The position numbers were made by a program, and so were the translations under genes. From assembly GCA_019237135.1 (NCBI GenBank), contig JAFAHQ010000367.1, positions 1 through 49,590 on the forward strand: a DNA stretch of 49,590 nucleotides, read 5' to 3'. Shown here piece by piece: positions 4,969 through 42,475 of the stretch (the first letter of the stretch is position 1; every line of letters begins with the position of its first letter). The notes beneath the pieces are model-generated. The model saw only the letters and a program-made list of their open reading frames with translations. It was not told where the DNA came from and searched no databases. The stretch is from Alphaproteobacteria bacterium (lineage in GTDB: Bacteria > Pseudomonadota > Alphaproteobacteria > ATCC43930 > CGMCC-115725).

Positions 4969-6255
4969 TCAGCCTCGTCGCGCGATGATCCGTTGGAGCT
5001 CGATATCCTCCAACCGGGAATTGCTTAGCCATTCCCGCACGGCGTCGACGGCAGCAGCGTCGCGGGCGGCCAGGGCAGCTTCGAGCAGGATGCGGACATC
5101 CGCCGGCTCCTTCTGCACCTGCCAATTTTCCTGTGCGAGCGTCAGCGCCGCCTGCGGTGCGTTCAGCAGATGCAAGGTGAACCGGCCCTCTTCCCGGAGG
5201 TGCACCCGATCCCCACGAAGGCGGCTGGCCGCGAAGCGGTCGCGCAGCTGCTCCATTTGTGCGGGCAGTTCTTTCGAATGCTGAGCCTGCAACGCCAGCG
5301 CGTAACGGAGCAGCAGGGGGTCTGCGCGGGTCTTGTCCCGAAGCAGGTCGAGGACCTCCGGCGACCGATCGCTGTCCAATAAGAAATCTGCGTAGGCGCC
5401 GAGAACGTAGTAGTCCGCGGCATCGAGAGCGAGCGCTGCGCGAAAATGCGCTTCCGCCTCCTGCGCCATGCCGGCGCGCGATGCCATTTCGGCCAGGCTG
5501 ATCAGCAGCCAGCTTTGAACGCTCGGCTTAGCGCGAGGGTACCTAGCGAGCGCTAGACTAAGTTGCTGATAGCTCTCGCGCAGCTGACCGGTCACTCCGT
5601 TCACATTCGCCAGGCAGGCGGCCCACACCAGTTCTTCGGTCAGCTCTTGCAGCGCGCGGCATTCTTCCCTCGCCTCGTCATAGGCGCCCTGTACCTGCAG
5701 CACCGTCGCGCGGATTAGCCGAGCCTGGAGATTGCGTGGATTGGTGTTCAGCACCGTCGCTAAATCCGCCAAAGCGGCATCGAACTGGTGCACGCGCTGA
5801 CGCAAAGTGGCGCGCAAGACCAGCACTTCCTGAGGTGCTTGCTCAAAGTCCCACCACGGGGCCAGCGCAGCTTGAGCATAGCCAGCGTAACGTGGATCAC
5901 CCGTGACGCGGCCGACCTCGAGGTAGCCCTGTGCGACAAGAAGCGCCAGCGGCAAGTTATCCGGGCTGCGGGTCAGTTGATTATTCAGTGCGCGCAGCCT
6001 GCTCAGGACAGGGTCGTTCGGCGCGAACGGCAAGCGCTCGAGGACCTGGCTGTCGGATTCAGGGACGAACGGCGCAGCAACCGCCCGTCCTGACGTGACG
6101 GCGATGACGATGACGCAGATCAGCGAGGCGATGCCACGCCATCTCTGGGAAAGCATATCGAGGAGATCAAGTGCTGATTCTGACGAGGATCCGAACGGTC
6201 CGCGCGATCGCTGGGTTAGCGAAGCCCGAGTGAAGGCGGCATTGGAACGCTTCAT
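4969..6255 (-). CDS. Tetratricopeptide-repeat protein, N-terminally anchored or secreted
   Basis: ORF 4969..6303. Start is uncertain (ATG at 6255 gives MKRSNAAF; a later Met precedes the hydrophobic IASLICVIVIAVTSG). Helical repeat-rich sequence with TPR-like A/L/Y periodicity. Confidence 0.7.
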   Translation of the reverse strand: MKRSNAAFTRASLTQRSRGPFGSSSESALDLLDMLSQRWRGIASLICVIVIAVTSGRAVAAPFVPESDSQVLERLPFAPNDPVLSRLRALNNQLTRSPDNLPLALLVAQGYLEVGRVTGDPRYAGYAQAALAPWWDFEQAPQEVLVLRATLRQRVHQFDAALADLATVLNTNPRNLQARLIRATVLQVQGAYDEAREECRALQELTEELVWAACLANVNGVTGQLRESYQQLSLALARYPRAKPSVQSWLLISLAEMASRAGMAQEAEAHFRAALALDAADYYVLGAYADFLLDSDRSPEVLDLLRDKTRADPLLLRYALALQAQHSKELPAQMEQLRDRFAASRLRGDRVHLREEGRFTLHLLNAPQAALTLAQENWQVQKEPADVRILLEAALAARDAAAVDAVREWLSNSRLEDIELQRIIARRG

Positions 6256-11503: not shown

Positions 11504-12774
11504 TAGACCTCGGCGTAGCGGGCGCAGAGCTCGGCGGGCGAAAGCTCCGCGACCTTCTCTGCCTCGACGCGCTTGAAGCGCAGATAGGCGTCGAAATGAG
11601 TCGGACCGAACCAGCCGGCGACCGTCTCACTGGCCGCGAGCCGGTCGAGCGCGTCCGGAAGCGATCGCGGAAGCGACGGTGGGGCGCCACTTGTGGCCGG
11701 CAGCGGCAACGCCCGGCGAATCCCGTCAGCCCCCGCAAAAATCACGGCGCCCAATGCAAGATACGGGCTCGCCGCAGCATCGGTGGGGCGGAATTCGACA
11801 TGGAATTGGCGCGCCACCTCGTTCGCCGTCGCGGCAGCGAAGACCGGGCAGATCCGAAGGCTGGCGCCGCGGTCCTGGCGAACCAGATCGATCAGGGTCG
11901 GCGCCCATGCATTGGGCACCAGACGCAGGTAAGAGACCGGTGAGGGTGCGGTAATCGAGCAGGTCGCCGGCATGTGGTGCAAGACGCCTGCGAAGAAATG
12001 CTGCGCCGGCTTGCTGAGATCCATCGGCTCGCCGGGAGAATGGGTCGCGGGCCGTCCCGCGGCATCGACCAAACTCATGTGAATGTGAACGCCATTGCCG
12101 ACGAGATCGGGATCGGGCTTCGGTGAAAAAATCACTCGGTGCCCCAGCCGATGCGCGACGGCACGCGCCATCTCGCGGGTGATCACCGCGTGATCGGCCG
12201 CGGTCAAGGCCGGCTCCGGCATCACGGTCACCTCGAACTGGCGCGGCCCGTACTCGGCAAGAAAGGTATCAGGAACCACCCCGGCCGCCCGCAACGCGGC
12301 GACAAAGCTCTCGCCGAAACAGCCCTGGCGACGGAAGGCGCCGAGCGCGTAGGCGTCGCCCGGACGGTCGGAGGTGCCGGTGTAAAGGAACTCCTGCTCG
12401 AACGCTGCAATCACGCGAAGGTGTGCCACCTCTTCGAGTTGCCAGATCGCGCGACGCAGGAAATCGCGCGGACAGCATTCCCAGGCACTGCCGTCGGTAT
12501 TGCAGATGTCCCCGAGAAAGAAGTGCTCGATCGCCGAGCCGTCGGCAAAATCGACCCGCACTTCGGCGGCGGGATCAGGCACGATCATGAAATCTCCGGC
12601 GGTCCCGAACGGCGTGTCCCAGATCGGCCCGAACGGCGACATCATCAAATTGCTGCCGGTCCACCCCACCCCCTTCTTCAGGCGCAGCGGCAGCTCGCGC
12701 GCCGGGAACCCCTTGCCTCGCGCAAGGCCGGAGATGTCGCAGGTCACTACGAAAATCAGCTCTTCGCGTATCAT
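11500..12774 (-). CDS. Glutamine-synthetase-family (gamma-glutamyl ligase-like) protein
   Basis: GS catalytic-domain features are present: AAFEQEF, FLAEYGPRQFEV, GNGVHIHMSL and SYLRLVPNAWAP. Confidence 0.8.
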   Translation of the reverse strand: MIREELIFVVTCDISGLARGKGFPARELPLRLKKGVGWTGSNLMMSPFGPIWDTPFGTAGDFMIVPDPAAEVRVDFADGSAIEHFFLGDICNTDGSAWECCPRDFLRRAIWQLEEVAHLRVIAAFEQEFLYTGTSDRPGDAYALGAFRRQGCFGESFVAALRAAGVVPDTFLAEYGPRQFEVTVMPEPALTAADHAVITREMARAVAHRLGHRVIFSPKPDPDLVGNGVHIHMSLVDAAGRPATHSPGEPMDLSKPAQHFFAGVLHHMPATCSITAPSPVSYLRLVPNAWAPTLIDLVRQDRGASLRICPVFAAATANEVARQFHVEFRPTDAAASPYLALGAVIFAGADGIRRALPLPATSGAPPSLPRSLPDALDRLAASETVAGWFGPTHFDAYLRFKRVEAEKVAELSPAELCARYAEVY

Positions 12775-33560: not shown

Positions 33561-33637
33561 GGGCCCGTAGTTCAGCTGGTTAGAACACGCCGCTCATAAC
33601 GGTGTAGTCGCAGGTTCGAATCCTGCCGGGCCTACCA
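33561..33637 (+). tRNA. tRNA with CAT anticodon (elongator Met or lysidine-type Ile2; not initiator), CCA encoded
   Basis: Hand-folded cloverleaf: acceptor GGGCCCG/CGGGCCT (G1-U72 wobble), D arm GTTC-AGCTGGTTA-GAAC, anticodon arm CGCCG-CTCATAA-CGGTG, T arm GCAGG-TTCGAAT-CCTGC, then A-CCA. It lacks the initiator features (1:72 mismatch, three G-C pairs in the anticodon stem). Confidence 0.9.
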
Positions 33638-36600
33638 TTACGACACCTGCGCGATCTCGCGCACCCGCGTCGAGCGCGCGGCGGCGAGGTGGTCTTTTGC
33701 CAGCACGGTATAGACCGCGGGCAGTACGAACAAAGTAAACAGAGTGCCGACCGACATGCCGGCGACGACGACGACACCGATCGAGAAGCGGCTCGCGGCA
33801 CCGGCGCCGGTCGCGATCAACAACGGTACGAGCCCCACAACCATCGCCGCCGTCGTCATCAGAATCGGGCGCAGGCGGACCCGAGCGGCCTGCTCGATCG
33901 CGCGCCTCCGGTCGAGGCTCTCGCGAACCTGCAGCACATTGGCGAACTCGACCATTAAAATGCCGTGCTTGCTGATCAGTCCGATCAAAGTGACGAGCCC
34001 GACCTGAGTGTAGATGTTCATCGTCGCCAAGCCGAAGAACAGCGGCATCAGCGCCCCGCAGATCGACATCGGCACACTGACGAGAATCACTAATGGGTCG
34101 CGCAGGCTCTCGAACTGCGCCGCCAGCACCAGAAAGATCACAATCAGAGCAAAAACGAAGGTAATCGTCAGCTGATTGCCCTCGCGCACGTATTGGCGCG
34201 TATCGGAAAGAAAGTCGTGACTAAAGCCGGCGGGCAGGTCCTTAGTTTGCTGCTCGAGAAAATCGACCGCCTGGCCCATCGTCACCCCAGGCATCGGCAC
34301 GGCCTGGAAGGTGGCAGAGTTCAGCTGGTTGTATTGGGTCAGCGCGTTGGGCTGGGTGCTGGTCGTCAATGCGACGAGATTGGACAGCGGCACCGGCTGA
34401 CCTGCCGCCGAAGTCACGTAATAGTGCGTCAACGTCTCGGGTGTCAGCCGGTCCGCGCGCGGCACCTGTGGGATCACCTCATAGGACCGGCCACCAAGAT
34501 TGAAGCGATTGATGTAGTTCTCGCCGACCAGCACCGCCAATGTGTTGCCGATCGATTGCATCGTGACGCCGAGCTGGTTCGCCTTCGAGCGATCGATCTT
34601 GACTCCGATCATCGGCTGATTGAAGTCGAGATCGCTGTCGATGACCATGAACAGGCCGCTCTTGCGCGCTGCAGCCTTGATCTTGGCCATGGCCTGGTAG
34701 ATCTCTTGAAATCCGCCAGTGGTGTAGAGCACCATCTGCACTGGCAAGCCGCCGATCGTCGCCGGCAGCGGCGGCAGTGAAAAGACAAACGCGCTCTCCC
34801 CTTCGACTTCCGCTACCTTCCTTTGCATTAGAGGTTTCAACTGCTGCGCGGAACGACTGCGCTCGCCCCACGGCTTTAGGATCGCGCCGGCGATGCCCTG
34901 GTTCGGACCGAACCGGCCGTTGACGACAAAACGCAGATCGGTCTCCGGGAAAGATGCGAAGGCTTTGTCGAGCTTGTCGCCATAGGCGTCCGCATAATCG
35001 AGATTGGCGTATTGCGGCGCCTTGGTCAGCGAGAAGAGGACACCCTGATCCTCCTCCGGCGCGAGCTCGGCTTTGGTATTCATGTACATGAAAGCGAGGC
35101 TGGCAAAGACCGCAGCGGCAAAAAGCGCGGTCACCGGACGGTAGTCGAGCGAGCGCTCCAGTTTACGCCCGTACCATTCGGCAAGGCGCGAAAAACCCCG
35201 GTCGATCACCCGGGCGAAGCGCCCTTGGGACATCTCTTGTGTCAACAGCACGGAGCACATCATCGGCGACAACGTCACCGCGACGATGCCCGAGATAATG
35301 ACCGCGCCGGCCAAGGTAAAAGCGAATTCGCGGAACAGCGCGCCGGTCACCCCGCCAAGAAACCCGATTGGAGCATAGACCGCGGCAAGCGTGAGGGTCA
35401 TCGAAATGACGGGGCTCGCGATCTCCCGGGCTCCGATCAAGGCCGCCTGCGCCGGGGTGCGGCCCTGCTCTATGTGGCGATAGACATTCTCCAGCACGAC
35501 AATGGCGTCGTCGACGACGAGCCCGATCGCCAGCACCATCGCCAGTAGGGTCAGCAGATTCACGCTAAAGCCGAGTGCCGCCATGATCGTCCCGGCGCCG
35601 ATCAGTGACAGCGGGATCGTCACGATCGGGATCAACACCGATCGGAAGCTGCCGAGAAACAGAAAGATGACGACTATCACGATGGCAACGGCCTGGGCCA
35701 AGGTCGACTTGACCTCGTTGATCGAGGCCTGGATAAACTTGGTCGAATCGTAAGCGACCTCCATCTTGACCGAAGGTGGCAGGTTGCGCTGGATCTCGGG
35801 CAGCAATGCGCGAACGCCGGCGACCAGCGACAGAGGATTGCCGGTCGGGGTCGCCTGCACGCCGATGAATACGGCGTGTTGCCCGTTCATCGCGACGCTC
35901 GAGGTCCAGCTTTGGGCGGCGAGATCGACGCTGGCGATGTCCTCCATTCGCACCAGAGCGCCGTCCTTTGACTTCACCACCATTTTTTTGAACTGCGCGA
36001 CATCGGCGAGCCCTGTGTCGACGTCGACGTTGGCGACAGTGAAAAAGCCCTTCGCCTGGCCCGGTGCAGACTGATAGTTGTTGGCGCGGATCGCTGCGGC
36101 GATGTCGTCGGCGGAAATTCCGTGCGCCGCCATTCGCGCGGGGTCGAGCCAGAGCCGCATGGCGAAGGTTTGACCGCCGAGGATGTCGGCCGAGGCGACC
36201 CCGTCAACAGTGGCGAGCAGCGGCTGCACGACCCGGGTCAAATAGTCCGAAATCGCCGCACTCGAGAGTTCCGAGCTGGCAAAGCCGATATACATGACCG
36301 CGGTCGTTTGGCCGGTTGCCTTGGTGATAATCGGGTCCTGTGCATCCTTGGGGAGCTGGTACTTGACCTGCTGGACCTTGGCCATGACATCGGTCAATGC
36401 CTGACTAGGGTCGTAGTTGAGCCGGATATAGGCAGTGACTGTGCTCGTCCCCTGTACCGAGGTAGCGGTCAGATAGTCGATGCCTTCGGCTGTCGCCACG
36501 GCCTGTGATATCGGCGTCGTCATAAAGCCCTGAATGACGTCGGGCGCGGCGCCGGGGTAGATTGTCGTAACCGTGATCGTCGTATTCGACAATTTGGGGT

Positions 36601-36709
36601 ATTGCCGGATCGGCAGCGAGGTCATCGCCCTGAGCCCGATCAGCAGGATCAGCAGGCTTACCACCAGGGAGAGCACAGGCCGGCGGATAAAGATGTCGGT
36701 GAAGGACAT
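33638..36709 (-). CDS. RND-family efflux transporter permease (AcrB/MdtB-like)
   Basis: 1023 aa starting MSFTDIFIRRPVLSLVVSLLILLIGL, with AIGLVVDDAIVVLENV and 12-TM architecture. The stop codon (33638-40) directly abuts the tRNA CCA end. Confidence 0.93.
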   Translation of the reverse strand: MSFTDIFIRRPVLSLVVSLLILLIGLRAMTSLPIRQYPKLSNTTITVTTIYPGAAPDVIQGFMTTPISQAVATAEGIDYLTATSVQGTSTVTAYIRLNYDPSQALTDVMAKVQQVKYQLPKDAQDPIITKATGQTTAVMYIGFASSELSSAAISDYLTRVVQPLLATVDGVASADILGGQTFAMRLWLDPARMAAHGISADDIAAAIRANNYQSAPGQAKGFFTVANVDVDTGLADVAQFKKMVVKSKDGALVRMEDIASVDLAAQSWTSSVAMNGQHAVFIGVQATPTGNPLSLVAGVRALLPEIQRNLPPSVKMEVAYDSTKFIQASINEVKSTLAQAVAIVIVVIFLFLGSFRSVLIPIVTIPLSLIGAGTIMAALGFSVNLLTLLAMVLAIGLVVDDAIVVLENVYRHIEQGRTPAQAALIGAREIASPVISMTLTLAAVYAPIGFLGGVTGALFREFAFTLAGAVIISGIVAVTLSPMMCSVLLTQEMSQGRFARVIDRGFSRLAEWYGRKLERSLDYRPVTALFAAAVFASLAFMYMNTKAELAPEEDQGVLFSLTKAPQYANLDYADAYGDKLDKAFASFPETDLRFVVNGRFGPNQGIAGAILKPWGERSRSAQQLKPLMQRKVAEVEGESAFVFSLPPLPATIGGLPVQMVLYTTGGFQEIYQAMAKIKAAARKSGLFMVIDSDLDFNQPMIGVKIDRSKANQLGVTMQSIGNTLAVLVGENYINRFNLGGRSYEVIPQVPRADRLTPETLTHYYVTSAAGQPVPLSNLVALTTSTQPNALTQYNQLNSATFQAVPMPGVTMGQAVDFLEQQTKDLPAGFSHDFLSDTRQYVREGNQLTITFVFALIVIFLVLAAQFESLRDPLVILVSVPMSICGALMPLFFGLATMNIYTQVGLVTLIGLISKHGILMVEFANVLQVRESLDRRRAIEQAARVRLRPILMTTAAMVVGLVPLLIATGAGAASRFSIGVVVVAGMSVGTLFTLFVLPAVYTVLAKDHLAAARSTRVREIAQVS

Positions 36710-36754
36710 GCTCAGAGCCCGTTTATCGAACGTCTAGGCGTTTCGGCCGAACAC

Positions 36755-36824
36755 GCCCCTCACCCCGGCCCTCTCCCCGCGAGCGGGGAGAGGGAGGGAC
36801 CCGCGCAGCGGGAGGATGAGGGGC
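36755..36824. repeat. REP-like nested palindromic element between the MFP and RND genes
   Basis: Outer arms gcccctca (36755-62) and tgaggggc (36817-24). Inner 12-bp stem ccctctccccgc (36769-80) and gcggggagaggg (36783-94). A second inner stem is cccgc-gca-gcggg (36800-12). Confidence 0.6.
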
Positions 36825-36874
36825 GGTAGGCGAAGGTAGGCTGGTGTTTTTGCCGTCCAACGTTCGTCAGACCT

Positions 36875-38104
36875 TTAGTTTGGCGTCGGATGGGCCGGTG
36901 GCTGGGGCGCGGGGGAGCCGGTGACGGCGACCTGGACGCCGTCCTGGAGCTTGATCTGGCCCGCGGCCGCGACGCGCAGCCCCGGCTTCAGCCCATTGAG
37001 GATCGCTACCTTGCCGTCCCATCGCGCGCCGGTCTTGACCGGAGTCCGGACCGCTTTGAGGATCGGATTGCCCTTGGCGTCCTTACCGTCTTCTTGAATC
37101 ACATAGACGCTGTCGCCATAGAGCGTGTAGTCGACCGCGGTCTCGGGGAGAACCACCATATCGGGCTGCGGCGGCAACACGACCGCGGCGTTGACGAACA
37201 TGCCGGGCAGCAAGGAGTTGTCTGGATTTCGCATCGTCGCCTGGACCGTCATCGTCCGCGTATCGGCGCTGACCTGCGGCTCGATCGTCGTGATTTCAGC
37301 CGTGTAAACTCGGCCGGGAAAGGCGTCTGCGGTGACATTGACCTGCTGGCCGACCGAGATTTGCGCCCGGATCTGCGACGGCAGGGTGAAATTCACATAG
37401 AGCATCGACAGATCGGTCAGAGTAACGATCCGCGCGCCGGGCGTCAGGTATTGCCCGACCTCGATCTGGCGCGTGCCGAGCTGACCGGAGAACGGAGCGC
37501 GGATCAGCTTTTGCTCGATCAACGCTTCGGTCTTGATGATTTGGGCCCGAGCCTGGTCGAGCTGGCTCTGTTTCTGATCGACGGTTTCCCGCGCTTCGTA
37601 TTGGTGCTTGGCAAGCTCGCTGGAGCGCTGAAGCGTAGTTTCCGCCCAGTGCGCCTGCGCCTGGTAATTGGCGAGGTCACCGCGATCGGGTGCGTCGTTG
37701 AGCTGGACGAGCGGGTCGCCGGCCTTCACCGTGGCACCCGGCTCAAAGAAGATCTTTGTGACGCGTCCGCCCACCTCGGGGTTGATCGTCACCTGATGTA
37801 TGGCGGAGACCGAGCCGATGCCGGTGGCAAAGCGCGGCACCGTCTCGGTCTCGACCTCGACCGCGCTGATTTGCGCCGGGGGCGGTCTGTTATTGGCGAA
37901 AAAGGTCGCCATCGCCTGCTGGCGGAAACGGTTGAAACCGTAAAGTCCGCCGAGCACAAGCGTCAGCAAGAGCGCCATGATAAGGAACCAGCGGACCGTT
38001 TTCGGCCGCCGCGTCGTGGCGCGGCCGGCGTCTCTTCGCTCGCGCAGTGGCTGGTCCGGGTTCAGCGCTTCCGCAGGCATGCCAGCCGTCAATTCGCCAT
38101 CCAT
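36875..38104 (-). CDS. RND efflux periplasmic adaptor (membrane fusion protein)
   Basis: ORF 36875..38320. Preferred ATG is at 38104 (MDGELTAG), preceded by AGGAG. TM anchor WFLIMALLLTLVLGGLYGF, then coiled-coil and barrel-sandwich motifs (IRAPFSGQLG). Confidence 0.9.
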   Translation of the reverse strand: MDGELTAGMPAEALNPDQPLRERRDAGRATTRRPKTVRWFLIMALLLTLVLGGLYGFNRFRQQAMATFFANNRPPPAQISAVEVETETVPRFATGIGSVSAIHQVTINPEVGGRVTKIFFEPGATVKAGDPLVQLNDAPDRGDLANYQAQAHWAETTLQRSSELAKHQYEARETVDQKQSQLDQARAQIIKTEALIEQKLIRAPFSGQLGTRQIEVGQYLTPGARIVTLTDLSMLYVNFTLPSQIRAQISVGQQVNVTADAFPGRVYTAEITTIEPQVSADTRTMTVQATMRNPDNSLLPGMFVNAAVVLPPQPDMVVLPETAVDYTLYGDSVYVIQEDGKDAKGNPILKAVRTPVKTGARWDGKVAILNGLKPGLRVAAAGQIKLQDGVQVAVTGSPAPQPPAHPTPN

Positions 38105-38118
38105 AGGCGTTTCTCCTG

Positions 38119-38835
38119 CTAGGCGGGTGCGAGCTCGATCGGGCTGCGTGCGCAATCGGTGAGTGTCGCGGCGATCGCCGTGTCCCTCATCCCGATGCCG
38201 CGCAGAATGAACCGGCTCGCCTCTTCGACCAGCGCCGCCGGCGTTCCTTGATAGGGTACCGAGGCGCGGCCGGGCAGAAGCACAAACGCGACCATCGCAG
38301 CAACGTGCTGGCCAAACCAAAAACGGTTCGCGGAGGCGATCGATCCGGGTTTCAGGTCTCCCGCCGCCGTGGCCGCCTCGATCGAGGCGGCAAAAAGCGG
38401 GTGCACCCGATCGAAAATCCTGTCGAACAGCTCGCGGGCATACTCCCCGTCCTCGAGAAAGCTGTGCAGGACGAGGCGCAGCCGGGTGTCGAGCTCTGCC
38501 CGATCGACCCCGGCGCCGAGCAGAAAATAGCGGACCATGAAATGGATCATGTGAACGAGCGTTGCGGTCGAGGGCTCGAGTATCGCCAGTCGCTCGAGCG
38601 CCGGATCCCCTTCGCAGCCGAGACGCAGGATCTCTTCGTAAAGGTGTTTCTTGCTCGGGAAATGCCGGAACAGCAGGGCTTCAGAGATTCCCGCCGCCTC
38701 GGCGAGCTCCTTTGTCGTCGTGCCGGCGAAGCCCTTGCGGGCAAAGAGCGGGACCGCTGCCGCGACGATCGCCTTTCGCCTCTCGTCACCATCCAATCGG
38801 GTCACAGCCATGGCGCCCCGCAAGTAAGCACTCAC
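38119..38835 (-). CDS. TetR/AcrR-family transcriptional regulator
   Basis: HTH RKAIVAAAVPLFARKGFAGTTTKELAEAAGISEALLFRHFPSK. The start may be the ATG at 38811. Confidence 0.85.
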   Translation of the reverse strand: MSAYLRGAMAVTRLDGDERRKAIVAAAVPLFARKGFAGTTTKELAEAAGISEALLFRHFPSKKHLYEEILRLGCEGDPALERLAILEPSTATLVHMIHFMVRYFLLGAGVDRAELDTRLRLVLHSFLEDGEYARELFDRIFDRVHPLFAASIEAATAAGDLKPGSIASANRFWFGQHVAAMVAFVLLPGRASVPYQGTPAALVEEASRFILRGIGMRDTAIAATLTDCARSPIELAPA

Positions 38836-38874: not shown

Positions 38875-38919
38875 CTACCGGCCCTGACTTCCCAGATATG
38901 ATAGCCGCCAAATCGTTCC
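38875..38919 (-). pseudogene. Orphaned alternative 3' end of the PQQ-type dehydrogenase gene (encodes GTIWRLSYLGSQGR*)
   Basis: Manual translation of the minus strand. Compare the live C-terminus GTIWRVSYRGP* at 41115..41150. Confidence 0.6.
38895..38919. repeat. Left 25-bp direct repeat (att-like)
   Basis: gatatgataGccgccaaatcgttcc against gatatgataCccgccaaatcgttcc at 41126..41150 (24/25 identical, checked base by base). Confidence 0.85.
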
Positions 38920-38939
38920 CCATACCCGCCCCCGGGCTG

Positions 38940-39209
38940 ATGACCTTCAGCAGGAGTTCACACGCGGCGAGAGATGCTCGCCCGACATTTGAATTTCCGC
39001 ATCGGATCATGGGCGGTATTCCGACGATCCGGGGCACCCGGATTACGGCACAATAAATCCTCGGCCGCCTCGAAAGCGGCGACAGCGTTGAGAGCGTGCT
39101 CGAGGATTATCCCTATCTCGATCGATGCGGTGGAAGCGGCCGCCCTCTATGCCAAGGCAAACCCGCCGCGGGGACGCCGGGCGGCAAGTTGTGGCGCCGC
39201 GCTTCCTGA
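38940..39209 (+). pseudogene. DUF433-family (antitoxin-like) gene disrupted by an in-frame TAA and a frameshift
   Basis: From ATG 38940: ...PHRIMGGIPTIRGTRITAQ then TAA at 39054-56, then ILGRLESGDSVESVLEDYPYL. The homologous continuation IDAVEAAALYAKANPP is in another frame from about 39120. Confidence 0.6.
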
Positions 39210-39820
39210 TCGACGAGAACCTTTCGCCGCTGCTCGCCCGTCATCTCCGCACGGCGCATGGTGTGGATGCGCTGCACGTCCAGGAGCTCGGCCTGCGTGG
39301 CGCCTCGGACGCGGATATCCTCGCCCGCGCGATCGCCGACGACCGGATCATTGTGACCAGCAATGCCGAAGATTTCCGTAGGCTCGGCGCGCGGACGCCG
39401 GCGCATCCGGGACTGGCGGTCATGCTCGACGCGGTCGGCCGGGCTCAGAAGCTGACCCTCGGGGTCGAACTCGCGAACGCCATTGACAGCGCCGGAACGG
39501 CGCATGGCCGCCTGTTCGAGATCGACCGCACGGGCCGCCCACCGCCTGGCGCCAGCATGCGACTAGGCCTTTTCCAGCTTCGAATGATGATCGATTTCGA
39601 TGATCTTCGGCGCCTCGACTGGTCAGCGCACGAGATAGCTCCCCGGAGTGAGAATCTCGATGCCGCGGAAGGGATGAAGGGCGAGAAGGTCGGCGTCGCC
39701 GGTGATGATCAATTGCGCCGTGCCGTTGACGGCAAGCTCAAGAAACTTGTCGTCCTTTGGATCACGGCAGACTTGTATGACGCGTGTGATCGGGATTCTG
39801 TCGGCAATGCGGTTGAATAG
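39191..39820 (+). CDS. DUF5615-family (PIN/Mut7-C-like) protein with a ~90-aa non-homologous C-terminal read-through
   Basis: From GTG 39191: APRFLIDENLSPLLARHLRTAHGVDALHVQELGLRGASDADILARAIADDRIIVTSNAEDF...HPGLAVM matches the family. After ...GRLFEIDRTG the ORF runs antisense into the PIN gene (39623-39820). Confidence 0.5.
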   Translation: MAPRFLIDENLSPLLARHLRTAHGVDALHVQELGLRGASDADILARAIADDRIIVTSNAEDFRRLGARTPAHPGLAVMLDAVGRAQKLTLGVELANAIDSAGTAHGRLFEIDRTGRPPPGASMRLGLFQLRMMIDFDDLRRLDWSAHEIAPRSENLDAAEGMKGEKVGVAGDDQLRRAVDGKLKKLVVLWITADLYDACDRDSVGNAVE

Positions 39821-40039
39821 ACGCAAGAACTCCTGGCGTTCCCGGATTGTGACATAGGGGTCGAACTTCGGACGGCCGAGAACGTCGGCCAGCTCCATAA
39901 TGGTGGAGTCGGAGGCGAGGAGCTGGCCGTCGGCAACAGCCTTGCGAACAGCCTGCCCCGGGATCGACCGCGGGAGAAGCAACCTGCTGACGAGCGCGTT
40001 TGTATCGACGACAACGCGCGCCCTAGCTCTCGTCGACAA
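39623..40039 (-). CDS. PIN-domain toxin (TIGR00305-type putative toxin-antitoxin system toxin)
   Basis: The motifs VVVDTNALVSRLL, CRDPKDDKFLELAV and LIITGDADLL are present. 17-nt overlap with the upstream antitoxin. Confidence 0.85.
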   Translation of the reverse strand: MSTRARARVVVDTNALVSRLLLPRSIPGQAVRKAVADGQLLASDSTIMELADVLGRPKFDPYVTIRERQEFLRLFNRIADRIPITRVIQVCRDPKDDKFLELAVNGTAQLIITGDADLLALHPFRGIEILTPGSYLVR

Positions 40040-40274
40040 GGATTTCGGCCAGCTTTTCCTCGGTCATCCCTCGCGCGGCCGCACGCTCGCCGATGCGGTC
40101 ACAGAAGCGCTGAAACTCGTCTGTGTTGAGCGCGCGTAGCCGATCGTATTCCTGCGGCGAGAGGAGTACGGCAGCGTCCCGGTTCTGTCGGCGGATCATG
40201 ACTGGCTCGCGCTGCGCGGCATCGAGAAGCGCGGCGAGGCGCTGCTTGGCTTCGGTGGCAGATACAGAGCGCAT
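40023..40274 (-). CDS. Phd/YefM-family type II antitoxin
   Basis: MRSVSATEAKQRLAALLDAAQREPVMIRRQNRDAAVLLSPQEYDRL matches the family. Confidence 0.85.
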   Translation of the reverse strand: MRSVSATEAKQRLAALLDAAQREPVMIRRQNRDAAVLLSPQEYDRLRALNTDEFQRFCDRIGERAAARGMTEEKLAEILVDES

Positions 40275-40807
40275 GACAATCCTTCTTTGTCTAATCTAGA
40301 TAAACTAGACAATTTAGCAAGTATGGCCGATCTTGACGCGGCGGCATGATGAGCCGGCGGATCTTGCCGGCGCGCACTGCCATCTCCCCGGACGGCCGGC
40401 CCTTGCGGGCCCTTCCGGGGATCGCCGATAATCTCGATGTGCCAGTTCATCAGCTGCGAAGGCAGCGCACACAACCGCCCGAGCCCGCCCGGTTTACCGC
40501 GGCGGACGAGGAGGTCATGGCGATTCAAGGTGTCGATCAGCATCTTGGTGGCGCGCAGATCCGCCCCGGTCGATTTGTTGACCAGCCGAGTGGCGACCGC
40601 CTCGCGCTTGGTGATCTCGCGCCGCTCGCCGTCGATGGTCACGACCACCTTCTCGTTGAGCGCCTCGACCAGCAATGCCGGTAGGTTCTTCGGGCGCGGG
40701 CCGCGCGGGTTGCCAGACGGGCCTTTCTTGAATCGGGTATGCACCGGCGGCTTGTCGCGGCCGACCTCGTAATCGTGCTTGTTCTCGGACATCTTGTTCC
40801 CGGACAT
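40196..40807 (-). CDS. DUF5681-family protein (N-terminal ~95 aa homologous; C-terminal tail probably not genuine)
   Basis: DYEVGRDKPPVHTRFKKGPSGNPRGPRPKNLPALLVEALNEKVVVTIDGERREITKREAVATRLVNKSTGADLRATKMLID matches the family. The S/P/R/A-rich tail reads across the phd promoter and start codon. Confidence 0.5.
   Translation of the reverse strand: MSGNKMSENKHDYEVGRDKPPVHTRFKKGPSGNPRGPRPKNLPALLVEALNEKVVVTIDGERREITKREAVATRLVNKSTGADLRATKMLIDTLNRHDLLVRRGKPGGLGRLCALPSQLMNWHIEIIGDPRKGPQGPAVRGDGSARRQDPPAHHAAASRSAILAKLSSLSRLDKEGLSCALYLPPKPSSASPRFSMPRSASQS
40287..40320 (-). promoter_or_regulatory. Candidate sigma-70 promoter and palindromic operator of the phd-PIN operon
   Basis: Minus strand reads TTGCTA (40320-15), 16 nt, TAGATT (40298-93), then AGGA and ATG. 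The inverted repeat ttgtcta (40287-93) / tagacaa (40306-12) encloses the palindrome tctaga. Confidence 0.45.
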
Positions 40808-41089
40808 GGGGGGCTCCCGCCATCCTGTTCACCCAGCGCGGCGTGGGCGACCCCGCCGCCCGCTTGCCATCGCGAAGTTCCACACCATATAAGAACCGCG
40901 CAATTGTTAATTAGTGAATTAGTATGTTAGCAATGACCGGGTGATACCAGACGGCGATCCGAGGATTTTTAGGCTTCCCTGCCGGTTCCCTGCCAAGCCT
41001 TCGATTTTTGCCGAGCGCCGTGCCCAAGTCTATGATGACACGCGGTTTTTCGGCGTATGGGGAGCTACGGAAAAATTTTTACCCGAGTT

Positions 41090-41108
41090 TTCCCTGTGCG
41101 GCAGGGAA
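41090..41108 (-). terminator. Hairpin just downstream of the dehydrogenase stop
   Basis: ttccctg (41090-96), tgcgg, cagggaa (41102-08). On the minus strand a T-run (aaaaattttt region) follows about 12 nt later. Confidence 0.35.
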
Positions 41109-41114
41109 CGGAGG

Positions 41115-42413
41115 TCATGGTCCGCGATATGATACCCGCCAAATCGTTCCGTTGCCGTCCTCGCTGACCAGCAGCGCACCGTCATGTGCGACGGCGACAC
41201 CGACCGGTCGGCCCCAGACTCGGCTGTCGTTGACCACGAAGCCGGTCAGAAAATCCTCGTATTCACCGGTGGGCCGCCCGTCCTTCAGTAAGATACGCAC
41301 CACTTTGTAACCGGTCCGCTTCGCCCGGTTCCACGAGCCGTGGAGAGCGGTGAACGCATCGCCGCGATATTCGGCGGGAAATTGCGCGCCGTCATAAAAC
41401 GCTATTCCGAGTGGCGCCGAATGCGGCTGCAGCAGCACATCGGGCTCGGTCACGCGACCACGCAGATCGGGCCGTTCGCTCGAATGACGCGGGTCTTCGT
41501 TCCCGCCGATATAGAACCACGGCCAACCGTAAAAGGCGCCTTCATGAACGCGAGTCACGTAATCGGGCGGGAGGTCGTCGCCGAGACCATCCCGCTCGTT
41601 GGTCGAGCACCACAGCTCGCCAGTCGCGGGCTGCACCGCCATCCCGACGCAGTTGCGGAGGCCGGCCGCAAAAATCCGCTCCTCTTTGCCTTCCGGGGTA
41701 AAGACGAGCACATCGGCGCGCTCCTCCTCCGAATCCCATAGCGCGCCAATTGAACGCTCCGCATCGTTGCTGCGCGAGCCGATCGAGACGAACATGCGAG
41801 CCCCGTCTTCCGAGAAGACGACGTCACGTGTCCAATGGCCGCCCCGCGGCAATCCCGCGACGATAGTCTCCGGGGGACCGGCGGGCTGCAGATCGCCCCT
41901 CCGAAAAGGAAAGCGGACTACCGCGTCCGTTTTCGCGATATAGACATATCGCGGGTTTGCCCCGGGCGGCCAGAAAGCGATGCCGAAGGGCCGGTCGAGA
42001 CCGTCGGCGAAGGTGCGGACCTCGGGTGCTCCTGTGACGTCCGTGGCGCGCAACACTCGGATCCGGCCCGCCCGGCTTTCCGCGACGAAAATGTCGCCAC
42101 TCGGCGAGACCCGAACTAGGCGAGGGTTATCGAGGCCGCTGGCGAACAGGTCGACGGCAAAACCTGGCGGCGCCTTTGGCCATGCGCCGCCGGGACGAGC
42201 CACGATGCCGGGATGGCGATTGGCGCTCGGCGTCGCGTAAGGGAGCGGCATGTCTGCTGGGGCGATTTTGCGCCGGACCCCGGGGGTGTCGTTGCGCCAG
42301 TCGCCATACGCTGCGGTGCCGGTCAGGACGGGAGAGGATTGCTCCAAAGCGGCGGCGGCGGTTGAGAGCAAGCCCGCCATCACAACGCCTATCGGTTTTG
42401 ATAATATCGCCAT
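41115..42413 (-). CDS. PQQ-dependent sugar (glucose/sorbosone) dehydrogenase-family periplasmic protein
   Basis: ORF 41115..42461. Preferred ATG is at 42413 (MAILSKPIGVVMAGLLSTAAAA). The motifs GFAVDLFASGLDNPRLVRVSPSGDIFVAE, NERDGLGDDLPPDY and LLVSEDGNGTIWRV are present. Confidence 0.85.
   Translation of the reverse strand: MAILSKPIGVVMAGLLSTAAAALEQSSPVLTGTAAYGDWRNDTPGVRRKIAPADMPLPYATPSANRHPGIVARPGGAWPKAPPGFAVDLFASGLDNPRLVRVSPSGDIFVAESRAGRIRVLRATDVTGAPEVRTFADGLDRPFGIAFWPPGANPRYVYIAKTDAVVRFPFRRGDLQPAGPPETIVAGLPRGGHWTRDVVFSEDGARMFVSIGSRSNDAERSIGALWDSEEERADVLVFTPEGKEERIFAAGLRNCVGMAVQPATGELWCSTNERDGLGDDLPPDYVTRVHEGAFYGWPWFYIGGNEDPRHSSERPDLRGRVTEPDVLLQPHSAPLGIAFYDGAQFPAEYRGDAFTALHGSWNRAKRTGYKVVRILLKDGRPTGEYEDFLTGFVVNDSRVWGRPVGVAVAHDGALLVSEDGNGTIWRVSYRGP
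41126..41150. repeat. Right 25-bp direct repeat (att-like), inside the dehydrogenase 3' end
   Basis: See 38895..38919. Confidence 0.85.
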
Positions 42414-42475
42414 CGAGCGTTCCTGAAGAGCGGCGAACCCGATGATCATGCCGCGCAACACCTAAAGGATCTCGA

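Follow-up and report, generated by a model that had tools for sequence, protein, structure and literature searches.

The stretch of DNA analysed here (the window) comprises 49,590 nt of contig JAFAHQ010000367.1 from an uncultured soil member of the Alphaproteobacteria. At 38875-41150 it holds a 2.2-kb islet, which separates a gene for a glucose/sorbosone dehydrogenase (GSDH), a beta-propeller enzyme of the pyrroloquinoline quinone (PQQ) type, from a gene for a TetR-family regulator, and which is bracketed by a short direct repeat. An original prediction, made from the letters of the window, took the repeat for the attL/attR core of a toxin-antitoxin islet that had integrated site-specifically into the last ~15 codons of the GSDH gene. 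We compared the locus with ~180 related loci (given below as L numbers, with proteins as P numbers), 80 of which are syntenic metagenome loci anchored on the TetR gene. Open reading frames (ORFs) were picked without a filter on third-position GC content (GC3), which is too strict for foreign DNA. The comparison points to a different and larger event: a phage-derived element probably inserted in the 3' end of the GSDH gene, supplied its last 62 codons, displaced the native end and then decayed. The features at the two ends of the islet are as follows.

41115-42461, minus strand: live GSDH gene (PQQ-type beta-propeller; Pfam GSDH, E=7.8e-21).
41115-41303, minus strand: putatively element-derived terminal block of the live gene, the last 62 codons (41118-41303) plus stop, ending ...GTIWRVSYRGP-stop.
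41126-41150, minus strand: right copy of the 25-mer, inside the live gene (codons GTIWRVSY), identical in L081, L082, L083 and L175.
40808-41114, minus strand: non-coding arm of the element, directly after the stop codon, including an AT-rich stretch and an A5T5 run.
38875-38919, minus strand: relic of the displaced GSDH 3' end, consisting of the left 25-mer (38895-38919) and the tail ...LGSQGR-stop (38875-38894).
38119-38835, minus strand: TetR-family regulator gene (Pfam TetR_N), with the conserved right flank TetR, MFP, RND, tRNA-Met.

On the plus strand the repeat reads GATATGATA[G/C]CCGCCAAATCGTTCC, and its copies at 38895-38919 and 41126-41150 are identical at 24 of 25 positions. Similarity without gaps around them reaches 27 of 30 nt (38890-38919 against 41121-41150). 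The original prediction had seen two copies by eye, and a search of both strands of the window with up to three mismatches returned no others, with a chance expectation of 0 in 100 shuffles. No inverted repeat pair was found at the islet ends. The reading of both copies also holds. The right one encodes GTIWRVSY in an intact gene ending RGP-stop (full ORF 448 codons; likely start ATG at 42413, giving a protein of 432 amino acids, P0001), and the left one reads GTIWRLSYLGSQGR followed by a stop on the minus strand, an orphan frame whose stop codon (38875-38877) is followed after 39 nt by the GTG that opens the TetR ORF (38835). The structure of the window is not an assembly artefact, because the independently assembled metagenome contig L087 reproduces its left half, with PIN, DUF5615, left repeat, TetR and MFP gene, at 99.6% identity over 3.1 kb.

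Throughout the clade with 90-93% identical TetR, a decaying GSDH 3' fragment lies just upstream of the TetR promoter. These relics have a common tail, TAT CGG GGA AGT CAG GGN CGG TAG (Y-R-G-S-Q-G-R-stop), followed by CTCATAGACC, and the ancestral tail is ...RVSYRGSQGR-stop. The relic of the window carries two derived positions, GTA>CTA and CGG>CTG, which account for the mismatch in the 25-mer and for the leucine of YLGSQGR. Homologous relics of varied length occupy the same site in L089, L090, L091, L098, L099, L103, L104 and L105. In the window and L087 the relic is reduced to 25 nt plus tail; by DNA alignment it extends over 41-114 nt in L103, L098, L090, L089 and L104, and by tblastn over ~56 codons, from codon ~392, in L104 and L105. 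Just the tail is left in L088, L094, L095, L100 and L106. The longer versions bear out the proposal that the left copy is a displaced dehydrogenase 3' end, and on these alignments the relic next to TetR is evidently the displaced host end of the GSDH gene. They do not bear out the 25-mer as an att duplication. L103 matches the rearranged block of terminase scraps and Phd/PIN genes in the window (92%) together with the 3' part of DUF5615, yet has a relic of 31 codons. Since it combines the same rearrangements with a longer relic, the 25-nt edge in the window marks where a later deletion ended and is no att-core boundary.

A search with the reconstructed relic peptide returned P0122, an ORF of 79 residues made up of 17 unrelated residues and the last 62 GSDH codons, with the tail YRGP-stop. 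In L175-L180 this block occurs without the other 386 codons and is followed by the same arm, a DUF5681 gene and a large terminase (TerL) gene; the left flank there is unrelated (guanylate cyclase, NicO, a beta-lactamase-fold gene and BNR). L094 likewise has the 62-codon block on another left flank, and its element ends at the relic tail and TetR. L175 overlaps L094 at 100% identity (L175 11306-16240 corresponds to L094 1-4935), and the ~10-kb element ends at the same relic tail and TetR. Homology between L175 and the live gene of the window begins at window 41303, which is codon 387, and this block start lies within 15 nt of the start of the longest relic (codon ~392).

Third codon positions change at the same place. 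Identity before and from codon 387 is 0.67 and 0.81 for the window and L081 (Fisher p = 0.018), 0.65 and 0.77 for the window and L083 (p = 0.031), and 0.74 and 0.94 for L081 and L083 (p = 0.0002). The same rise is absent in pairs that involve L136 or the element-free outgroups L161, L001 and L085 (p = 0.13-0.6). Unbiased change-points for the three element-bearing pairs fall at codons 392-404. Because the block travels with the element and synonymous sites jump at its edge, the last 62 codons of the live gene appear to share the history of the element, and sequence comparison links the block to the element consistently. This agrees with the earlier view that the element supplies the present C-terminus. 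It places the junction ~62 codons before the stop, at window 41303, rather than in the last ~15 codons, and makes the duplicated block ~190 bp long.

The closest GSDH relatives of the window, P0002 (88% amino-acid identity) and P0003 (85%), also end ...RVSYRGP-stop. In a scan of a genome collection the best GSDH match was 74% identical (a Stellaceae metagenome-assembled genome); synteny stops at the stop codon, and tails vary. The gene order MlaA/VacJ, MlaC, ABC-F, GSDH is kept in L001, L081, L083, L085, L136 and L161.

The stop codon sits in an unusually uniform segment. Over ~71 nt (41095-41165), from the last ~16 GSDH codons through the stop and ~20 nt into the arm, the window, L081 and L083 show 100% identity, and L175 is identical too across the compared part, against a background identity of 80-89%. 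This could reflect constraint at the DNA level, from a former att or protein-binding site, or this may simply be the best-conserved peptide motif. Immediately behind the stop codon the arm forms a hairpin, TTCCCTG-N5-CAGGGAA, at 41090-41108, and further on it carries the motif TTCCCTGCC twice in direct repeat (40975-40983 and 40986-40994). The arm is conserved at ~88% in L081, 80% in L175 and 75% in L136, with the motif pair and the hairpin kept in L081 and L136. It has no match in Rfam and none to a terminator pattern, and the folding of the hairpin is unremarkable (z = -1.2). A phage protein that has since been lost may have bound the TTCCCTGCC motifs and the hairpin.

Between the two gene ends lie the following features.

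40526-40792, minus strand: truncated DUF5681 gene, first 89 codons (Pfam DUF5681, E=1.3e-19; phrog_26239).
40469-40523, plus strand: inverted 55-bp piece of DUF5681 (codons ~99-116), a rearrangement scar (blastn to L081 11893-11947, 94.5%, opposite orientation; tblastn).
40336-40450, minus strand: scraps of a large terminase N-terminus (MNWHIEII at 40427-40450 and MAVRAGKIRRLI at ~40348-40383; blastn to L081 TerL, 12353-12407; tblastn).
40023-40274, minus strand: Phd/YefM-type antitoxin gene (Pfam PhdYeFM_antitox, E=3e-14; 96% amino-acid identity in L103).
39623-40039, minus strand: PIN_3 toxin gene (Pfam PIN_3, E=6.7e-18), also in L087 and L103, with a 17-nt overlap with the antitoxin gene.
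39197-39565, plus strand: DUF5615 gene (PIN-like or Mut7-C-like; Pfam DUF5615, E=7e-20), apparently intact.
38990-39196, plus strand: DUF433 pseudogene, partner of DUF5615 (weak Pfam DUF433 match; in-frame TAA at 39054-39056, frameshift near 39120).

The gene content had been read correctly for the most part: Pfam identifies GSDH, TetR_N, PIN_3, PhdYeFM, DUF5681 and DUF5615. Two items can be refined: the DUF433 gene is a pseudogene, and in the 'DUF5681' ORF the N-terminus of DUF5681 is fused to the inverted 55-bp piece and the terminase scraps. The Phd/PIN pair fits the layout expected of a type II toxin-antitoxin system, with a small putative antitoxin gene upstream, an overlapping putative toxin gene and the family domains. 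The DUF433/DUF5615 module, a putative toxin-antitoxin pair, is not intact in both parts, leaving DUF5615 as a putative toxin without its partner.

What the truncated genes derive from can be seen in L081 and L082, whose GSDH is 88% identical at the amino-acid level. There the GSDH gene is followed by a full-length DUF5681 gene (196 amino acids) and a TerL gene (545 amino acids), the latter matching phrog_38, 'terminase large subunit', in L081 (E=3e-115). L081 and the window align in a single high-scoring segment pair of 86% identity, from 49590 through the gene, its stop codon and the 306-nt arm to 40524, where collinearity ends; the DUF5681 stump of the window is 90% identical in amino acids to the full-length L081 gene. 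Past 40524 the window continues with the inverted DUF5681 piece, the terminase scraps and the Phd/PIN cassette. L095, which overlaps L081, continues from TerL to YhaV/PrlF, a DUF5615 scrap, the relic tail and TetR. Phage-gene remnants thus lie between the two gene ends, which upholds the claim of foreign DNA inserted in the 3' region of the gene. What was inserted is better described as a phage-derived element with DUF5681 and a large terminase than as a toxin-antitoxin islet; the 'islet' is evidently the stump of such an element, decaying differently in each lineage. The ratio of nonsynonymous to synonymous substitution rates (dN/dS) is 0.14 for the large terminase and 0.17 for DUF5681 (dS 0.16 and 0.36; L081 12204-13841 against L175 8923-10563), and these full-length genes are under purifying selection where no portal, capsid or tail genes come after them. 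The GC content of the islet is unremarkable apart from the AT-richer arm at 40850-41150 (GC 0.53).

The cargo of the gap differs between relatives with common junctions, and the 25-mer occurs just twice in the window, so that recurrence of the islet as one unit was not seen. YhaV/PrlF occupies the gap in L081 and L095. DUF1156 and an SNF2/PLD helicase are found in L089 (163-6505), a DEAD helicase and a 1093-residue protein of unknown function in L088 (1-5603), DUF4238 and a TPR protein in L103 (1172-5944), and M78-Macro, an AAA/adenylosuccinate-synthetase (AdSS)-like protein and DUF7002 in L094 (1-3493) and L175. Truncated DUF5615 copies abut the relic in L089, L090, L091 and L103, with a scrap in L095. 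The toxin-antitoxin cassettes are variable cargo, as are the other genes, some of them defence-like to judge from their domains. Mobilisation of the islet in trans, which had been left open as a possibility, is unsupported: the junction is common to relatives with 85-88% dehydrogenase protein identity, and the content decays differently per lineage.

To the right of the insertion, the tRNA-Met gene of the window (33561-33637) is uninvolved. Identity along 33638-38835 is mosaic: in amino acids the RND pump of the window is 96% identical to those of L136 and L144, and its TetR is 81-82% identical to theirs; the same TetR is 92-93% identical to those of L089, L090 and L103, and the RND pump of L103 is 86% identical; the MFP gene spans 49% to 73%. 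Breakpoints of homologous exchange seem to fall within the TetR-MFP-RND operon. Between the RND and MFP genes, 50 bp (36755-36804) are 96% identical to L081 12061-12110, a piece inserted in the 3' end of DUF5681 that translates there to ...NPLPASGEREGPA...; this stretch looks like a dispersed REP-like intergenic repeat. In the GSDH-less relatives L124, L128, L132, L137, L141, L145, L153, L160 and L166, ABC-F abuts TetR, with no recognisable relic.

We consider the following history probable. A temperate phage or phage-derived integrative element would have integrated in the 3' region of GSDH, ~62 codons before the stop. Its attachment region would have held its own copy of these codons, with the tail ...SYRGP-stop, followed by the hairpin-containing arm, DUF5681 and the large terminase. 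The crossover would have taken place at the 5' edge of the ~190-bp homology block or close to it. The gene would have remained intact with an end that is now element-derived, and the host's native last 62 codons, with the tail ...SYRGSQGR-stop, would have come to lie beyond the insert, immediately upstream of TetR. The recombinase and most phage genes would then have been lost, with decay in place that differed per lineage. In the window, 89 codons of DUF5681, terminase scraps, Phd/PIN and DUF433 (pseudogene)/DUF5615 would be what was spared by deletions and a small inversion, and a further deletion would have cut the relic to its last eight codons plus tail. We infer a single old integration by an integrase, a tyrosine recombinase. 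The erosion of element and relic, as traced through the relatives, is evidently lineage-specific. The '24/25 direct repeat' would be the remainder of a ~190-bp duplication, which we hold to be probable as part of the whole history.

Several observations weigh against this history or fit it imperfectly. A live gene with a relic-type tail, ...RGSQGR-stop, occurs among neither the 120 full-length nor the 120 short homologues, and the reading of the relic as the native end leans on its position beside the conserved right flank. The only element-free GSDH-TetR locus, L161 (GSDH, 255 nt, TetR), counts in favour as an arrangement without the element and has no relic; however, its tail, ...RVSYRGW-stop, is not of the relic type, and it is distant (73%/81%). 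The complete absence of GSDH from several relatives fits poorly. A permutation test of the change-points was significant in one of three pairs (p = 0.002, against 0.08 and 0.14). No related version examined contains an integrase or excisionase, and the viral contig collection yielded neither an intact phage nor an attP carrying part of GSDH. As no integrase or excisionase was found, site-specific recombination is argued from the architecture only. Finally, in L136 the arm of the element and part of DUF5681 (75% to the window) are present behind a gene end of GC-rich codons (YRGR-stop), and there is no relic. To account for L136, a diverged relative of the element must have integrated there separately, or the region must have been replaced later. 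Its positions 5693-6116 hold a clean 424-nt fragment of a Ku-like C-terminus, exactly between the GSDH stop codon and the arm.

The empty site foreseen by the original prediction, a live gene ending ...LSYLGSQGR beside TetR, was not found. The tail ...SYLGGRPAL... of P0077 in L084 resembles the orphan tail, but its context is unrelated and we rejected it as an empty site. The prediction had also named what would speak against it, islet-free relatives with the terminus ...RVSYRGP and no 25-mer upstream of the TetR gene, and L161 comes close to this in form. Such a locus is unsuited to decide the matter, because a replacement end borne by an element is expected to mimic the family consensus.

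The searches for recombination genes can be summarised briefly. None of the tested islet ORFs matches a recombinase family, the rest of the window not having been screened, and Pfam finds no transposase domain in the islet ORFs. Upstream of the relic in L088, L089, L094, L100 and L103, helicases, DUF1156, DUF4238, M78 and AdSS-like genes were found, and no recombinase. This result is in line with the earlier description of the islet as a stranded remnant. Scans of viral contigs with TerL and the GSDH C-terminus returned seven short DUF5681-TerL remnants and a distant GSDH gene cut by the contig end (L174, beside tail/baseplate genes); neither those remnants nor L174 showed a GSDH fragment or homology to the arm. 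DUF5681-TerL pairs of a similar kind adjoin host genes in viral contigs L167-L170 and L173. A recombinase near DUF5681-TerL was seen solely in distant phage contigs: L171 (615-2387) and L172 (1-1512) have the gene order large serine recombinase, ORF, ParB/N6-methylase, DUF5681, TerL, from which the packaging module would lie near the recombinase end in intact relatives.

The same architecture could also have arisen without an integrase, through RecA-dependent (Campbell-type) entry of circular or linear foreign DNA carrying a GSDH 3' fragment or through homology-facilitated illegitimate recombination with DNA from a relative, with the relic as the 3' end of the recipient. In its favour, no recombinase is seen in islet ORFs and related versions, a 190-bp homology block suffices for RecA, and the mosaic identity along TetR-MFP-RND shows frequent homologous exchange at the locus. 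We nevertheless consider this route unlikely. Integrases usually make such an architecture, and the 5' edge of the block, within 15 nt of the longest relic, is also the breakpoint of an independent flank swap: in L175-L180 and L094 the left flank changes exactly there and the right flank is retained, which suggests a rearrangement via the old attachment site or between two element copies. Reuse of this boundary suggests a preferred crossover site and not random exchange, for which reason the integrase-free route is rated low.

It is improbable, in our estimate, that GSDH block, arm, DUF5681 and TerL form the core of an integrase-less, satellite-like family that would use the recombinase of a helper phage, target the GSDH 3' end (and secondary sites) and carry toxin-antitoxin or defence genes. 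Such a family is hinted at by the purifying selection without neighbouring structural genes, by the perfect conservation of the ~71-nt junction and by similar DUF5681-TerL pairs in several unrelated host contexts.

Little more can be said for the model from which the analysis started, a small integrase-less toxin-antitoxin islet inserted site-specifically into the last ~15 codons, with the 25-mer as attL/attR core and possible mobilisation in trans, which we regard as having a slim chance of being right. Its strengths are the clean 24/25 repeat, unique in the window, that brackets the islet, and the perfect conservation of the 25-mer and ~45 nt around it in the live genes of the window, L081, L083 and L175. 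It does not explain why relics reach well past the 25-mer in relatives, including L103 with the rearrangements of the window, why toxin-antitoxin content differs among relatives with common junctions, why the insert holds remnants of phage packaging genes, or why the element-linked block begins 62 codons before the stop.

We rate it as very improbable that the GSDH 3' end and its downstream DNA were duplicated locally in tandem and then diverged, without any insertion. Five A/T-ending codons in the 25-mer that are common to live copy and relic and missing in the element-free outgroups would suit it. However, the relic tail, with its extra SQG, and the sequence downstream differ from the live copy in every lineage, no relic is seen with a second copy of the arm after it, the 62-codon block moves with phage genes, and an element-free locus exists (L161). 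Transposon insertions are marked by target duplications of 2-14 bp, terminal inverted repeats and a transposase; insertion of a transposon with target-site duplication was rejected, given a repeat of 25 nt now and ~190 originally, no inverted repeat pair at the islet ends and no transposase domain in the islet ORFs. A chance or dispersed repeat unrelated to insertion can be dismissed, with zero copies expected and only two present, both in homologous coding context.

The preferred history, integration of a phage-derived element at the GSDH 3' end, closely resembles that of e14 and phage 21, whose target in Escherichia coli K-12 is icd, likewise a housekeeping-type enzyme gene entered within its 3' coding part. 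The replacement 3' end brought by the element (163-165 bp in icd, ~190 bp in GSDH) leaves the gene intact with a slightly changed C-terminus. In e14 the element supplies the icd 3' end and a 163-bp pseudo-icd' (icdC) is separated off (PMC6379469, PMC13626634); the displaced native 3' fragment is kept as a direct-repeat pseudogene at the far end, as it seems to be here, and both are defective elements with accessory genes. The window has the corresponding parts, namely what appears to be an element-derived terminal segment on an intact gene, a displaced fragment at the far end in direct orientation and phage DNA between them. The e14 element keeps integrase and excisionase and still excises. 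In contrast, the GSDH element has no remaining recombinase and is reduced to 2.2 kb with a relic of 45 nt; the target is GSDH, the host an uncultured soil alphaproteobacterium, and the phage type one with DUF5681 and Terminase_6C. As the islet ORFs and the related versions show no recombinase domain, the window holds a remnant and not a functional member of the e14/icd type.

Two further comparisons are useful. Grounded or cryptic prophages that serve as hotspots for toxin-antitoxin and defence genes are similar in that the cargo differs per relative, a defence role being read here from domain content alone. Genomic islands at tRNA 3' ends (attL/attR) are similar in that a direct repeat from the 3' end of the target brackets the island and element sequence restores the gene; unlike them, GSDH is a protein-coding target, and the original repeat of ~190 bp has diverged.

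Short (41-82 residues), free-standing C-terminal GSDH ORFs are numerous in the protein collection (P0121-P0240), and other Alphaproteobacteria contribute some of them, on contigs 0.1-1.7 Mb long. Frameshifts in the gene may account for these ORFs, or they may be additional displaced 3' ends, in which case GSDH would be a recurrent insertion target.

The architecture is already well known from e14 in E. coli icd, and no new mechanism is involved. What the locus offers, through comparison among uncultured soil Alphaproteobacteria, is a clean illustration of the lasting scar that a phage would leave on integrating at the 3' end of a protein gene: the gene is chimeric yet intact, its former end persists as a shrinking pseudogene, and the gap between them exchanges toxin-antitoxin and defence-like genes. 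A short direct repeat around an 'islet' may hence be the last piece of a longer duplication and not an att core. GSDH would be an addition to the protein-coding attachment targets of phages, and C-terminal variation in such enzymes may be phage-derived.

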